A stretch of 64,000 nt of DNA, from the IMG/VR virus record IMGVR_UViG_3300012983_000036, positions 1 through 64,000 of that record. One strand, given 5' to 3'. The translations under genes and the position numbers were made by a program. This document shows positions 9,794 through 35,976 of this stretch, piece by piece. How positions within the stretch are numbered: the first letter of the stretch is position 1; every line of letters starts with the position of its first letter. A model generated the notes under the pieces. The model was not told the DNA's origin. It ran no database searches and saw nothing but the letters and a program-made list of their open reading frames with translations. The stretch comes from a virus (taxonomy: Duplodnaviria; Caudoviricetes).

Positions 9794-10342
9794 ATGAAAA
9801 ACTATCGTAATATTGATACTAATAAGAAAACAGTAGAAGATACAAATAAGGGTAATGTTACATTTACTACCGGTGATTACTCTTATTATTCAAAGATACT
9901 TAAAAAACCTTTTGATACTGTAGCTGCTCTTAAAGAAGCTGAAGCTGCATACTTTGCAGAGCAGAAAGCCAAAGAAGATAAAGCTGCTGTTAAAAAGGCA
10001 GATGCTGAAAAAGTTCAGGATGCTTTTAAAGCACTGAATGCTGCTAGAAAGACTTTTAAAGAAGACAATGCTTCTCTTGATAAGCAGTATCGTGAAGGTC
10101 TTAAGCAGCTTAAGGATAAATATGAAGAATCTAGAAAGGTTATTCTTGCAAAGCTTGAAAATAGTGAAACAGCCTATGCGGCTGCACTTAAAGCTTTTAC
10201 TGACAAGTACCCCGAGGGCTATCATATCACTTTAAAAGATGGTGACTTTGAAACTACTATCGACAATAGAGTTGGTTCTGTAACAGCTGCTAATGTAAAA
10301 CCTTTCTGTGCTTTTGACGAACTTCTTCAGTTACTTTTCTGA
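9794..10342 (+). CDS. Coiled-coil hypothetical protein
   Basis: A/K/E-rich helical segment; AGGAG RBS. Confidence 0.75.
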   Translation: MKNYRNIDTNKKTVEDTNKGNVTFTTGDYSYYSKILKKPFDTVAALKEAEAAYFAEQKAKEDKAAVKKADAEKVQDAFKALNAARKTFKEDNASLDKQYREGLKQLKDKYEESRKVILAKLENSETAYAAALKAFTDKYPEGYHITLKDGDFETTIDNRVGSVTAANVKPFCAFDELLQLLF

Positions 10343-10404
10343 TTTAATTTAAAATAATTACTGAGACAATATTAAAAATTTTAAATTAATATCGTATAAT
10401 AACA

Positions 10405-10495
10405 CATAGGGTTTGAACGACATTTACATATTCATGATAAATCCTCCTTTCATTGAGCTCCGGTTTTCCTCCCGACCGGAGCTTACATTTTATTT
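10405..10495 (+). ncRNA. Candidate anti-RBS small RNA 1 (or structured leader)
   Basis: After CGTATAATA motif; contains antisense image of GAAAGGAGGATTTATCATG; hairpin agctccggt/accggagct with CCTCC in the loop. Confidence 0.45.
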
Positions 10496-10512
10496 ATAAG
10501 GAAAACACAAGT

Positions 10513-10902
10513 ATGACTGACAATGACATGATGTTACAATTAATAGAACGTGCTAAGAATAAGGATTACTCTAAATTTCGATATTTACGAAATTGGAAAG
10601 ATTACCGGTATATCCGGCAAACCAAGAAGACTCTAGAATTAACTATCTCAGCTTTGCAGAAGGCCGCAGACAATACTCTAAAGTCTTACTGCCGTGAAGT
10701 AAGACGTGGTACTTCAGAAATTACTAGACTGGTAGCCTTTACTATTTTAAATAACACTTTAAAGTTCTATAAAGAAGAACTCGATATTATTAATCATATG
10801 ATTTACGAGTATGAAGCTTATCTTCTGTGTGGCAATTATGTAGCGGCTTTCTTTGGAGCTGAGCGAACTGATGCTGAATTGTGGGATCATAGAGAGGAAT
10901 AA
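10513..10902 (+). CDS. Hypothetical protein
   Basis: ATG 10513 in ORF 10453-10902. Confidence 0.65.
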   Translation: MTDNDMMLQLIERAKNKDYSKFRYLRNWKDYRYIRQTKKTLELTISALQKAADNTLKSYCREVRRGTSEITRLVAFTILNNTLKFYKEELDIINHMIYEYEAYLLCGNYVAAFFGAERTDAELWDHREE

Positions 10903-10904
10903 AC

Positions 10905-11129
10905 ATGGAACATACTTTAGTAACATTATTTAACACTTATGCAGAACTAGATAATCCTCCTATCTTAGAGTTGCTTGACATTAATAACAAGCCTGTTGGT
11001 GCACTTTATTTAGATAAACTTAAGTATAGAAACTTTATAATCTCGGATACTGACAGCTCCGAAAAATACTATTTATATATAGACGGTGTGGGAATTTACT
11101 TTTCATTTTACCGGAAATTGAGTCTCTAA
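10905..11129 (+). CDS. Hypothetical protein
   Basis: ORF with GAGGA RBS, coupled to upstream gene. Confidence 0.6.
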   Translation: MEHTLVTLFNTYAELDNPPILELLDINNKPVGALYLDKLKYRNFIISDTDSSEKYYLYIDGVGIYFSFYRKLSL

Positions 11130-11297
11130 TATTGTATAATATTATGTAGAGATTTTTAATTTTGATAAGGATAACAGACTTAAAAATCTGTTATCCTTTT
11201 TAATTTTAGCTCCTCAAAAAAGGTCATTTTATAAGCTAAATTAAATACACCGGGTTGAGGTGTATAGTATATAAATTTAATAGAAAGGTGCGATGTC

Positions 11298-13532
11298 ATG
11301 CAAAGAGTTATTAAGCGTGACGGCCGTGAGGTCGAGTTTGATAAGACTAAAATTATCGAGGCACTCTCGTGTGCTAATAGAGAAATCATGAAATCGAAGC
11401 AGATTGGTCCGAGGAAGATTAATCAGATTGCTTCTATTATAGAAGAGCGTTGTAAGGAATATAAGCGAGCTATTAAAGTAGAAGACATTAATGATATGGT
11501 CGAAGATGAACTAATCTACCGAAATTACAACAATCTTGTCCGAGCCTTTATTCAGTATCGTTACAATAAAGAGCTTATTAGAAAATCAAATACAACTGAT
11601 GAATCAATTCTCAGTTTAATTAATCTAAATAATGAGGAACTCAAACAAGAAAACTCAAATAAGAATCCAGTGATTACATCTACACAGCGTGATTACATGG
11701 CGGGCGAAGTAAGTAAAGATCTTACACGTAGATTACTCCTAGATAGAGATGTTGTTCAGGCTCACGATGTAGGAGTACTTCATTTCCATGATACAGATTA
11801 CTATGCCCAGCGTATTCATAACTGTGATTTAGTCGACCTAGAGGATATGCTCCAGAATGGCACCGTCGTATCCGGAACTCTTATTGAGAAACCTCATAGC
11901 TTTGCTACTGCATGCAATATTGCAACTCAGATAGTTGCTCAGGTTGCTAGCAGCCAGTATGGCGGGCAGAGCATCACTCTCTCTCATCTTGCTCCTTTCG
12001 TAGACATTAGTCGACAGAAGATTAGAGCCGAGGTAGAAGAAGAACAACGTCTAGCATGCAATAAAACTTACAATGTGAACATAACTGAATTCTCAAATTC
12101 GATGAAAGACGCAATTGATGAAATTACTGAAAGACGAGTTAGGTCAGAAGTAAAACGTGGAGTACAGACTATTCAGTATCAGGTTAATACCTTAATGACT
12201 ACAAATGGTCAAGCACCATTTATCACAGTATTTGCTTACTTAGGTGAAGTCAAAGATAACCGCACTAGAAAAGATCTTGCCATGATCATTGAGGAAGTCT
12301 TACTGCAGAGAAGACAGGGTATCAAGAATGAGAAAGGTGTATGGGTAACTCCAGCATTCCCGAAGCTTATCTATGTACTAGAGGAATGCAATGCCCGTAA
12401 AGGATCTGAGTACTTCTACTTAACCGAGTTAGCAGCAAAGTGTACTGCTAAACGTCTAGTTCCTGACTATATTAGTGAAAAGATCATGAAAGAACTTAAG
12501 GAAGGTGGCTGCTTCCCTCCAATGGGTTGTCGTTCATGTCTTAGTCCTTGGTATGATGAAGACGGTAAGCAAAAATGGTATGGCCGCTTTAATAAAGGTG
12601 TTGTTACTGTAAACTTAGTAGATGTAGCTTGCGGCGCAGATGGTGAAAACTATGCTAAGGATCTAGCAAGCTTTTGGAAAAACTTTGATGAAGTACTTGA
12701 GCTTTGTCATAAGGCTCTCCTCTGTCGTTATGAAAGGCTTAAAGGTACTGTTAGTGACGTAGCTCCAATCCTTTGGCAGCATGGAGCAATTGCTCGACTA
12801 AAGAAAGGTGAGACGATCGATAAGTTACTTACAGGAGGCTACTCAACTATTAGCCTAGGTTACGCAGGATTGTGGGAGTGTGTAGTAGAACTTATTGGTA
12901 AGAACTTACTTACTGAAGAAGGTCAGGAACTTGGACTTGAGATCATGAAATATATGAATAAGAAGTGTGACGAGTGGAACCAGGAACTTTACCTAGGCTT
13001 TGGGATTTATGGTACTCCGCTAGAAAGTACTACTTACAAGTTTGCCAAGTGTCTTCAGAAGAGATACGGAATTATTCCCGGAGTTACTGATAAGAGTTAT
13101 ATTACTAATAGTTATCATGTACATGTAGAAGAACCGATTGATCCTTTTGAGAAACTCAGAGTAGAAAGTAAGTTTCAGAGACTTTCATCAGGCGGCGCAA
13201 TCAGTTACATAGAAAGTGCTAACTTGGAAAATAACATTGAAGCTATTCTTACTATCATCGAATATATCTATGATAATATTATGTATGCCGAAATTAATAC
13301 TAAGTCTGACTATTGCCAAGAGTGTGGCTGGGATCATGAAATCCTTATTGACGAAGATGAGTCTGGTAAATTAATCTGGAAATGCCCTAACTGCGGTAAT
13401 ACTGATCAGTCTAAGATGAATGTTGCTAGAAGAACATGCGGTTACATTGGAACTCAGTACTGGAACCAAGGTAGAACCCAAGAGATTAAAGACCGCTATG
13501 TTCACCTAGACTGCCATGAGTGTGGATGCTGA
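11298..13532 (+). CDS. nrdD: Anaerobic ribonucleoside-triphosphate reductase (class III)
   Basis: ATP cone (VIKRDGR..FD..KI), MGCRS, YITNSYH, CxxC..CPNC, RRTCGY glycyl-radical motif. Confidence 0.97.
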   Translation: MQRVIKRDGREVEFDKTKIIEALSCANREIMKSKQIGPRKINQIASIIEERCKEYKRAIKVEDINDMVEDELIYRNYNNLVRAFIQYRYNKELIRKSNTTDESILSLINLNNEELKQENSNKNPVITSTQRDYMAGEVSKDLTRRLLLDRDVVQAHDVGVLHFHDTDYYAQRIHNCDLVDLEDMLQNGTVVSGTLIEKPHSFATACNIATQIVAQVASSQYGGQSITLSHLAPFVDISRQKIRAEVEEEQRLACNKTYNVNITEFSNSMKDAIDEITERRVRSEVKRGVQTIQYQVNTLMTTNGQAPFITVFAYLGEVKDNRTRKDLAMIIEEVLLQRRQGIKNEKGVWVTPAFPKLIYVLEECNARKGSEYFYLTELAAKCTAKRLVPDYISEKIMKELKEGGCFPPMGCRSCLSPWYDEDGKQKWYGRFNKGVVTVNLVDVACGADGENYAKDLASFWKNFDEVLELCHKALLCRYERLKGTVSDVAPILWQHGAIARLKKGETIDKLLTGGYSTISLGYAGLWECVVELIGKNLLTEEGQELGLEIMKYMNKKCDEWNQELYLGFGIYGTPLESTTYKFAKCLQKRYGIIPGVTDKSYITNSYHVHVEEPIDPFEKLRVESKFQRLSSGGAISYIESANLENNIEAILTIIEYIYDNIMYAEINTKSDYCQECGWDHEILIDEDESGKLIWKCPNCGNTDQSKMNVARRTCGYIGTQYWNQGRTQEIKDRYVHLDCHECGC

Positions 13533-16223: not shown

Positions 16224-17081
16224 ATGTTACAGGATACCAAAAAAGATCTTACTTTACTTGCGCGCAAACTTACAAAACCGTACGAACAGTACACTATTGA
16301 TGAGCTAGCTGACGCTTATTGTGCAGCAGTGGACTCAGGCAACACGGTTCTAAAGGATATTTACATATCAGCTTTAATACTTAGATTTTGGTATACTATC
16401 GATAAGATGTATGCGTCCAATACAGTAGCTCCTAGCTTGGAGAGAGAAGATTTCTTCGACTGGCTTTACGAAGGTATTGAGTATGCTTGTAAATATAGAG
16501 GCTGGCAAGACCCTAGTAAAAAATTGAATGCTCAGCAGTGTATCAATCAGTGTATTAACACAATTAAACTTCAGAAATACTATGACCTCAGACTTGACAA
16601 GCATAAAGCTGTTAATAATTCTTACAGCTTAGACGCACCTCTTTCAGGTGAGGGTGAAGAAGGTAAGAGTCTTGCTGATGTTCTTGTGTCTGATGTTGAT
16701 ATGGAAGATACAAGCGAATATGACGCAACACTCTTAATTCAAAGTTACATAAATAAAAATAAAATTGTTGAAGCTATCATTCTTGATAACATAGCTTTTA
16801 ACGATACGCAGAAGCATTTCAAGAAAACAATCAAGACTCAGAACTCTGAGGGTGAAGATATAAAGTATGTAGAGCATAGCAGTGAGTTCTGGCCCTATCG
16901 TTTGGTTCAGCTGGTAAGCAAGTTACCTGATACATATAAAAGTTACTTTATGTCTAAGTATAACATTTCTGAAGACAAGCTTAATGCAGTTCTTGAAACT
17001 ATTGATAGAGCTAACAATCAAAAAATCTATCGTTACCTTGACAAGACTCTTAAAGACCTCAGAGCAAACTTTGCATATTAA
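16224..17081 (+). CDS. Divergent sigma70-family RNA polymerase sigma-factor-like protein
   Basis: Region 2-like LILRF...EREDFFDWLYEGIEYACKY and region 3-like YSLDAPLSGEGEEGKSLADVL; own promoter TTTACA(16164)-17-CATAAT. Confidence 0.55.
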   Translation: MLQDTKKDLTLLARKLTKPYEQYTIDELADAYCAAVDSGNTVLKDIYISALILRFWYTIDKMYASNTVAPSLEREDFFDWLYEGIEYACKYRGWQDPSKKLNAQQCINQCINTIKLQKYYDLRLDKHKAVNNSYSLDAPLSGEGEEGKSLADVLVSDVDMEDTSEYDATLLIQSYINKNKIVEAIILDNIAFNDTQKHFKKTIKTQNSEGEDIKYVEHSSEFWPYRLVQLVSKLPDTYKSYFMSKYNISEDKLNAVLETIDRANNQKIYRYLDKTLKDLRANFAY

Positions 17082-25346: not shown

Positions 25347-25439
25347 GTTCATAAATAAGAGTAGGGAGCAGGGTAATAATCCTGCTCTTGAATTTTTTTT
25401 ATAAAAGTATTAAATTTTAAAAGCTAGTACTGTATAATA

Positions 25440-25650
25440 TAGTACAGGTCATCACCCCCTCCGACCTGTTTGTATATAGGGATAGCAGGTTTTATATTTG
25501 TTTTTTTTTTCATAAAAATTCCTCCCTTTATAATACATTTGTTTTTGTTTGCGTAGACAATTTTGTTTGAAAGTTATAAATGTTTTTACCTCCCTTTTCT
25601 TTCATTTTAACTAAAAATTTTATACCTGCTATCCCTATTAATTTTAATTA
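25440..25650 (+). ncRNA. Candidate anti-RBS small RNA 2
   Basis: After CTGTATAATA; 5' hairpin acaggtc/gacctgt with CCCTCC loop; 15-bp stem 25476-25490/25624-25638 enclosing two further CCTCCC motifs; no + strand ORF. Confidence 0.55.
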
Positions 25651-25689
25651 ATATGTTAAATTACAAATAGTTTTATTGTATTATATAAT

Positions 25690-25833
25690 ATAAAAAGAAA
25701 ATAAAACATCTTTCATTTTCAAGTCCTCCTTTGACAATGATTTTCACCTCCCTCCTTTCTCTCTTGGATGTTTTCTTTCCTCCTATTTTCTTTTTATCTG
25801 AAGCTACGTGTTATGCGTAGCTTCTTCTTTTTT
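25690..25833 (+). ncRNA. Candidate anti-RBS small RNA 3
   Basis: After TTGTATTATA; 14-bp stem 25690-25703/25784-25797, inner stem aaaacatc/gatgtttt, four CCTCC motifs, terminator gaagctacg/cgtagcttc plus T tract. Confidence 0.6.
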
Positions 25834-25907
25834 CTAAAAATTGTTAAACCAAGTAAGTTTGTACTGTATAATATATAGGAAACAAAATAATATAGGAGGT
25901 AATTAAG

Positions 25908-29570: not shown

Positions 29571-29604
29571 AAACTCTACTAATTGTATTATATTAGTAGA
29601 GTTT
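29571..29604 (+). promoter_or_regulatory. Hairpin with TGTATTAT promoter motif in the loop
   Basis: aaactctactaat-tgtattat-attagtagagttt; analogous elements at 32225, 35918, 42837, 49981. Confidence 0.65.
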
Positions 29605-35874: not shown

Positions 35875-35976
35875 TGATTGAATTTAATAGGAAGACTTTA
35901 AATAAATTATAGAAAATAACTCTACTGATGCTGTATTATAGATCAGTAGAGTTTATTATTTTTGGAGGCTAGTTTT

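Follow-up and report, generated by a model that had tools for sequence, protein, structure and literature searches.

A conserved structured RNA with exposed anti-Shine-Dalgarno motifs upstream of the ORF 10513 family in a clade of large gut phages

We describe a real, conserved and uncatalogued structured phage RNA that probably controls translation. It was found in the window (the whole stretch of 64,000 nucleotides analyzed here), which is part of a single 100,895-bp virus contig with ∼33% G+C and with genes lying essentially all on the + strand. The element spans positions 10360–10512 and comprises a promoter, a 5′ hairpin, the CU-rich stretch UCCUCCUUUC, a second, GC-rich hairpin whose loop carries UCCUCC, and a tail rich in U. 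Seventeen distinct lineages carry it, all of them from gut metagenomes. A preliminary description of this locus had listed CGTATAATA, CATATTCATGATAAATCCTCCTTTC, a 9-bp stem, its loop and a T-rich tail, and all of these are present where it had placed them. Its proposal of a + strand RNA unit with a promoter also holds, as the promoter is conserved and G.U pairs fix the strand.

The locus was recovered from metagenomes by means of the flanking proteins, the gene 16224 protein, DNA patterns and an ORF 10513 profile. Since homologues of gene 16224 sit on contigs of up to 220 kb, the 101-kb contig is probably a fragment, less than half of a ∼220-kb jumbo-phage genome; contigs of the clade reach ∼220 kb. 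In 17 of 17 versions the element is flanked by an ORF 9794 homologue on one side and an ORF 10513 homologue on the other, and the downstream order in relatives is element, ORF 10513, a ∼74-aa ORF and nrdD/nrdG. Public phage records searched with the DNA and with both flanking proteins contained nothing similar, and the ORF 10513 profile run against viral contigs gave no lineages beyond those already recovered. Two loose patterns were searched in metagenome and viral contigs and returned mostly chance matches: TATCGTAT...GGTT..TCCTCC yielded L107 as the sole true new lineage, and ACTGAGACA...ATCGTAT yielded no true new one. The pattern matches in L189, L192 and L344 were rejected as not being the element. 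The sequence occurs in runs from the guts of cattle and other animals. Parts of the stretch are present in 20 runs, one of them RNA; the contigs of the RNA run are a relative's, none lies over 10313–11322, and they are uninformative on expression (note that all 20 runs are contigs, so that transcript ends are unreadable from them).

The promoter was located at 10372–10401 (+ strand), with a -35-like TTAAAA at 10372–10377, a 17-nt spacer and TATAAT at 10395–10400, and scored 10/12 in a consensus scan. Promoter-like matches show no enrichment here (13 matches vs. 11.6 expected, the region being AT-rich), so the scan alone is insufficient, and the promoter was called because of its conservation. 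The -10 region reads ATCGTAT(A/T)(A/T)TA in 14 of the 17 lineages and ATTGTAT(A/T)ATA in the other three; the spacer is variable in sequence but constant in length across lineages. The CGTATAATA at 10393–10401 is a member of the recurring YGTATWATA motif class of this phage, of which ∼19 intergenic copies on the + strand are typically found 30–45 nt before a start codon. Further upstream lies the box ACTGAGACA (10360–10368, + strand), which occurs once on the + strand of the genome. Sixteen of the 17 lineages have it in identical or nearly identical form, and L430 lacks it. This box may be a regulator site: at ∼28 nt upstream of the -10 hexamer and ∼39–47 nt before the predicted transcript start, it is too far upstream for a -35 element.

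Two other arrangements of promoters and hairpins were observed in the window. At 29584, 32239, 35932 and 42849, copies of TGTAT(A/T)ATA are located in the loops of 12-bp inverted repeats and are followed by T-runs (e.g., 35918–35953); judged from sequence, each of these sites resembles a terminator and a promoter fused in compact form. A second promoter motif, TGTATAATA, is present at 11133. A 12-bp hairpin with a U-tail (11167–11198) follows ∼25 nt on, and a ∼100-nt leader then runs to nrdD (11298), so that here again a promoter stands before a terminator.

A short transcript of ∼85–90 nt is predicted at 10407–10497 (+ strand), its start placed from the -10 hexamer and its end from a terminator-like site. 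Folding of the RNA from 10403 to 10500 gives -23.4 kcal/mol (z = -3.98), a value that not one of 200 shuffles matched. In minimum-energy folds the 5′-terminal hairpin P1 (10409–10444, + strand) forms by pairing of GGGUUUG (10409–10415) with UAAAUCC (10438–10444). A 5′ hairpin occupies the place of P1 in every lineage; in most relatives it is UAAGAU...AUCUUA, which leaves the following CU-rich stretch free. This stretch, motif 1 (UCCUCCUUUC, 10442–10451, + strand), reads UCCUCCUUU in 14 of 17 lineages and is replaced by CU-rich variants in the other three. The CCUCCUUUC within motif 1 is the complement of GAAAGGAGGA, and we take it to match the 16S rRNA 3′ tail of Bacillota. In most lineages motif 1 is either unpaired or located in the 8-nt loop UUUCCUCC; in five of them it forms that loop on top of a small hairpin, ACAAG/UUUGU.

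The second hairpin, P2 (10454–10485, + strand), was identified by a hairpin scan and by folding and contains 12 pairs including A-U and G.U. Its core is made of nine uninterrupted Watson-Crick pairs (10456–10464/10475–10483) closed by the loop TTTCCTCCCG at 10465–10474, which displays UCCUCC at 10467–10472; this loop motif is unpaired in every fold. Together with the U-rich tail CAUUUUAUUUAU (CATTTTATTTAT; 10486–10497, + strand), P2 constitutes an intrinsic-terminator-like site, in which a GC stem-loop (10454–10485) leads directly into the U-tract CATTTTATTT. Across the 17 lineages, T accounts for 4–8 of the 10 bases that follow the stem, and 16 lineages have a U-rich tail. The strongest tails are those of L187, L320 and L429 (canonical UUUUAUUUU immediately behind the stem); L181 has the weakest (GCUUUCUACC), and that of L431 is weak as well. 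The weak Shine-Dalgarno (SD) sequence AAGGA (10498–10502) and the start codon of ORF 10513 (10513–10515) complete the arrangement (10498–10515, + strand). Two further candidate features were considered and rejected. Pseudoknots of the loop, either with a 5′ AGGR or with the SD, keep only 4 bp across lineages, and a leader peptide (an ATG reading CCU-CCU as Pro-Pro) is found in ∼5 lineages only, without an SD, and is absent elsewhere.

The P2 stem is always paired and keeps 10–14 pairs across ∼11 different stem sequences, and UCCUCC is invariant in its loop in 17 of 17 lineages. Covariation was tested on 12 lineages aligned to a covariance model. Seven of the 12 P2 pairs have changed on both sides, and the covariation score is 0.40 vs. 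0.20 in shuffles; none of 500 shuffles reached 0.40 and slid partners gave at most 0.15. More than 13 G.U cells in P2 would become C.A mismatches on the opposite strand, and we conclude that the RNA is on the + strand, where the promoter and the U-rich tail also lie. A conserved CU-rich motif exposed while the stem covaries, as used to recognize anti-SD sRNAs, was found for the P2 loop, and motif 1 is exposed in most lineages. The + strand of the 100,895-bp genome contains 18 copies of CCTCC and 80 of GGAGG; two of the 18 CCTCC copies are in this unit and seven in 25458–25779. That the CCUCC design is no product of chance, as had been suggested earlier, is better argued from conservation than from these counts: two motifs are under selection in 17 lineages, one of them in the loop of a covarying hairpin. 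The element is thus more than chance.

The minus strand deserves consideration as well, because the reverse complement of CATATTCATGATAAATCCTCCTTTC (10427–10451) is GAAAGGAGGATTTATC ATG AAT ATG TAA and offers, in the window, a flawless GAAAGGAGG that is separated by a 7-nt spacer from an ATG. It could carry a strong RBS with a 3-codon mini-ORF (MNM), or else a relic RBS or an r-protein-leader-like hairpin with a GGAGG loop. A sub-threshold Rfam match to the L31-Coriobacteria leader (RF03128) points in the same direction, with 26.5 bits vs. a cut-off of 33, on a strand without a downstream gene. However, the ATG is missing in most relatives, which bears out the earlier view that the 3-codon reading is not a gene, and the mini-ORF exists only in the window's own lineage. 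The neighboring genes are all on the + strand, and a functional minus strand would turn the G.U pairs of P2 into mismatches and leave the conserved promoter and U-tail on the other strand. A role of the minus strand is hardly credible.

It is also conceivable that the site is an ordinary junction between the terminator of the ORF 9794 operon and the promoter of the next unit, in which the CU-rich bases do nothing by themselves. Promoters and terminators are often closely packed in this phage, no terminator-like site other than P2 follows ORF 9794, and apart from its loop P2 is like ∼20 other terminator-like hairpins per genome. At a simple junction of this kind, however, the promoter would not be expected to precede the terminator as it does here, nor would six loop bases and a 9–11-nt CU stretch be expected to stay invariant while stems and flanks turned over completely. 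This genome has 19 terminator-like hairpins and a 96-kb relative has 23, and among all of these only P2 has a C-rich loop; we consider a mere junction very unlikely. The covariance model finds one copy per genome (E 1e-6 to 1e-11, next best >1).

The unit had been called unlinked. On the contrary, in each of the 17 lineages a member of the ORF 10513 family follows it directly, and it was never seen away from that gene. The gap from P2 to the start codon is 27–40 nt across lineages (27 in the window), and since it is so short, no separate promoter fits between P2 and ORF 10513. The gene must therefore be transcribed through the element, which is also an operon leader, and by the usual comparative criterion the strict linkage without an intervening promoter marks it as a cis-regulatory leader. 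The possibility of a cis leader for ORF 10513, mentioned earlier as an alternative, is hence at least half right.

ORF 10513 (10513–10902, + strand) encodes 129 aa, has 204 homologues and is the gene always found behind the element. Its predicted structure is a three-helix long hairpin (pLDDT 86). Neither Pfam nor PHROG contains a match to ORF 10513, a search of the protein atlas was unproductive, and a Foldseek search against the PDB returned generic helical hairpins only (E 0.24 or worse). The second gene of the unit is ORF 10905 (10905–11129, + strand; 74 aa), after which comes the terminator-like hairpin at 11167–11198. An ORF of 73–76 aa follows ORF 10513 in all relatives with enough sequence.

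We next consider whether the element could be purely a cis leader. P2 would then serve as an attenuator and as the terminator of the upstream operon, and motif 1 or the loop would mask the SD of ORF 10513 and keep the level of a dose-sensitive protein low, with no role in trans. The 17/17 linkage without an intervening promoter speaks for this, as does the absence of co-evolution with trans targets in a six-lineage comparison (see below). The predicted folds also agree with it in part. The minimum-energy fold of the window pairs UCCUU (10445–10449) with AAGGA across P2, and the SD is paired in 9 of 12 lineage folds, six times with motif 1 across P2 (including the window) and three times with the tail; this score covers the first 12 lineages. 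Yet any SD complements an anti-SD, so that such pairing is expected and not diagnostic, and it comes without covariation and without a conserved alternative structure. No alternative anti-terminator fold is conserved either, and no SD pairing is predicted in L010, L011 and L107.

The SD itself provides a further argument. As noted in the preliminary description, the RBS of ORF 10513 lacks GGAGG and has the weak AAGGA instead; the orthologues use AAGGA, AAAGG, AGGA or GAGG, and GGAGG in none of 17. In itself a weak SD is unremarkable, as ∼70% of the phage genes are without a full GGAGG. An AAGGA or AAAGG does not need an invariant CCUCC core, though, and because the core is invariant while the SD is never GGAGG, we conclude that the motifs are not tuned to the adjacent SD. 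Displaying a motif in an 8-nt hairpin loop is what one expects of a contact surface rather than of a mask over an SD. A leader acting only in cis is accordingly possible but, in our judgment, on the unlikely side; if it were true, the element would be an ordinary control element on that gene. The untuned CCUCC, the placement of the motifs in loops, the three lineages without SD pairing and the presence in this clade of stand-alone CCUCC-rich RNAs are the reasons to look beyond it.

Possible trans targets were examined by counting contiguous matches; ViennaRNA duplexfold against all start regions gave only long bulged duplexes. The partial complement GGAGGATTTA occurs exactly three times on the + strand (16211, 18258 and 22447), each time before a start codon, and these copies lie at the RBSs of genes 16224, 18271 and 22461, as had been reported. 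Many SDs have a complementarity of 8–10 nt to the RNA. Motif 1 has matches of at least 8 nt at 11 of the 32 GGAGG sites in the first 40 kb and of at least 9 nt at 7 of the 32, and matches of at least 8 nt are found at about one third of the GGAGG sites in any lineage. In a 6 × 6 matrix of RNAs against SD sets from six lineages, cognate pairs matched no better than swapped ones. For this genome, sites of at least 9 nt numbered 7 with its own RNA and 4–6 with foreign RNAs; for the 96-kb relative, they numbered 2 with its own RNA and 4 with the RNA of this genome.

The orthologues of genes 16224 and 18271 in the 96-kb relative read GGAGGAAAT(A/T), and the RNA flank changes from UAAAU to UGUUU. 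An apparent covariation between this genome and the 96-kb relative at 16224/18271 (AUUUA to AAAUA) was considered and rejected in view of L184, L181 and the cross matrix. In L184 the 16224/18271 orthologues keep GGAGGAAATA and GGAGGATTTA although the RNA flank is GUAU, and in L181 there is no extended match at these orthologues. Switching off of early genes, proposed earlier as a possible role, is therefore not supported: swapped RNAs give as many long matches as cognate ones, and the L184 and L181 orthologues ignore the RNA flank. The conserved feature is a generic anti-SD core. Such an anti-SD would also bind the phage's own GGAGG sites, which leaves specificity unexplained, and the strict linkage to one gene and the absent target specificity call for caution with any reading in trans. 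The product of gene 16224 (16224–17081) is extremely conserved and has 1,222 homologues, the best 120 of the 1,222 showing 71–78% identity; one homologue is named "RNA polymerase subunit F" by one source, and the product has no Pfam family match.

The reading that we consider best, tentatively and with slightly less than even confidence, is that of an intrinsically terminated RNA whose exposed anti-SD motifs pair with RBSs, with read-through feeding ORF 10513. Transcription would begin at the promoter of the phage class (-10 at 10395–10400), with a start near 10407. The RNA would fold into P1 as a stabilizing 5′ hairpin, the CU-rich anti-SD copy UCCUCCUUUC, P2 with a second UCCUCC, and the U-rich tract. 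P2 and the U-tract would act as an intrinsic terminator, judging by their sequence, so that many transcripts would end near 10490 and give an RNA of ∼85–90 nt; both the ends and the efficiency of termination are taken here as we infer them. The two exposed motifs would pair with GGAGG-type RBSs and block docking of the 30S subunit, as in LhrC, RsaE/RoxS and the cuckoo loops, pairing being the presumed mode of action. Read-through past P2 appears to be the only visible source of ORF 10513/10905 mRNA, and on read-through transcripts the motifs could pair in cis with the weak SD AAGGA. If this role proves true, the large gut phages of this whole uncultured clade regulate translation by means of RNAs made as copies of the docking sequence of the ribosome, one such RNA being part of the leader of a conserved gene. 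The design, in which a terminator loop carries one of the two CU motifs, is simple and testable.

The combination of an invariant loop with a stem that covaries freely is also the classic signature of a protein operator. The element could thus mimic the 16S rRNA 3′ tail for a phage or host protein, possibly the product of ORF 10513 or ORF 10905, that binds the UCCUCC loops and sets termination or translation of its own operon, in the way that ribosomal-protein leaders mimic rRNA sites. The five lineages with two hairpins sharing the 8-nt loop UUUCCUCC would fit such an operator, the tight linkage to one gene family fits autoregulation, and ORF 10513 is predicted to be a long helical hairpin. 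Against this, ORF 10513 has no RNA-binding domain or fold match, the neighboring proteins have no known RNA-binding fold, and the second hairpin is missing in the window's own lineage. The signature would equally fit contacts between RNA loops, of the kind seen in cuckoo RNAs and LhrC. We regard a protein operator as unlikely.

No Rfam family matched the 64-kb window at the gathering score. With E up to 10 on 10340–10530, RsaE, LhrC/rli and ar14 were not found, and only sub-threshold noise was returned. The element belongs in kind with the CU- or C-rich anti-SD RNAs and to no named family. With 17 lineages and ∼11 stem versions, the comparative support for this new RNA family is strong, and the family is ready for a curated model.

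In RsaE/RoxS, the 3′ domain of S. aureus RNAIII and IsrR, C-rich unpaired motifs pair with G-rich SDs and block initiation (summary: PMC4132741). These RNAs differ from the phage element in having UCCC or CCCC seeds with gene-specific flanks, and Rfam gave no sign of homology; in the phage element the motif is a full anti-SD and its flanks are without target co-evolution. In the LhrC sRNAs of Listeria monocytogenes a CU-rich motif recurs in the loop of a 5′ hairpin, in the unpaired segment that separates two hairpins, and in the loop of the terminator; the motif binds the target SD, and all three copies can bind the SD region (PMC4132741). The low-GC Gram-positive setting, the redundant CU-rich motif and the layout are alike in the phage element (PMC4132741). 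The LhrC motif is CUCCC/UCCC, however, vs. UCCUCC(UUU) in the phage element, and the LhrC genes are stand-alone, multicopy and stress-induced, whereas the phage element shares its promoter with a downstream ORF and its targets are only putative.

The cuckoo RNAs of Alphaproteobacteria (CcsR1-4/RSs0680a-d, alpha-r14 and NfeR1) have an anti-SD-like loop motif, CCUCCUCCC, and modular hairpins, as the phage element has (PMC4615179). In them only the loop motif CCUCCUCCC is conserved and the stems covary, mostly by compensatory changes, and their neighborhood is preserved beside one gene family, which is again similar (PMC4615179). They belong to another phylum, are chromosomal and multi-copy, contain 2–4 equal modules, and produced no ar14 match at E up to 10; the phage element, in contrast, is single-copy, is a leader ahead of its gene, and has a P2 that doubles as terminator. 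SD-sequestering 5′ leaders and attenuators share with it the order of promoter, anti-SD, hairpin, SD and start codon, and SD pairing is predicted in most lineages. Unlike these leaders, the phage element revealed no conserved alternative fold or sensing element, and its motif exceeds in strength the SD that it would cover and has a second copy in a loop.

The preliminary description had also placed the element in one family with units at 25.4–25.8 kb. The common design was confirmed, and homology was not: because the covariance model finds a single copy and nothing at 25.4–25.8 kb, the units there are not homologues of the 10.4-kb element. Two promoter-to-terminator RNAs rich in unpaired CCUCC, e.g., UUCACCUCCCUCCUUUCU, are located at 25431–25660 and 25677–25836. 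The 25.7-kb RNA has several unpaired (CA)CCUCC(UUU) stretches and a strong terminator, followed by a separate promoter for gene 25908. Near 25719–25732 it contains a small hairpin, CAAG-UCCUCC-UUUG, a design in common with the 10.4-kb element. Among the relatives, L179:11240-11520 and L181:19170-19500 contain a counterpart, which has three CCUCC motifs and a long-range stem of 15 bp.

A broader proposal is that the clade uses a set of RNAs, namely the leader and the RNAs at 25.4–25.8 kb, that mimic the 16S rRNA 3′ tail (CCUCCUUU or CACCUCCUUU). They might soak up SDs as a timed brake on translation, or be decoys or operators for a factor that recognizes the anti-SD tail. We offer this as speculation and think it quite unlikely. 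If RNAs with anti-SD loops did share a function, they would represent a general way for phages to time or redirect protein synthesis.

Hairpins of similar appearance were also met outside the clade. In the unrelated 230-kb IMG/VR contig L344, a perfect hairpin with a AUUCCUCC loop and a T-run adjoins CCTCCTTTC (L344:12690-12760). This CCTCCTTTC serves a minus-strand gene as its RBS; an RBS on the opposite strand can therefore also give rise to this motif pair, and pattern searches need caution. The 96-kb relative G001 (IMG/VR UViG_3300018878_000130) contains a lone minus-strand gene at 75420–75995, preceded by the RBS AAAAGGAGGATTTTATTATG, in an otherwise + strand genome.
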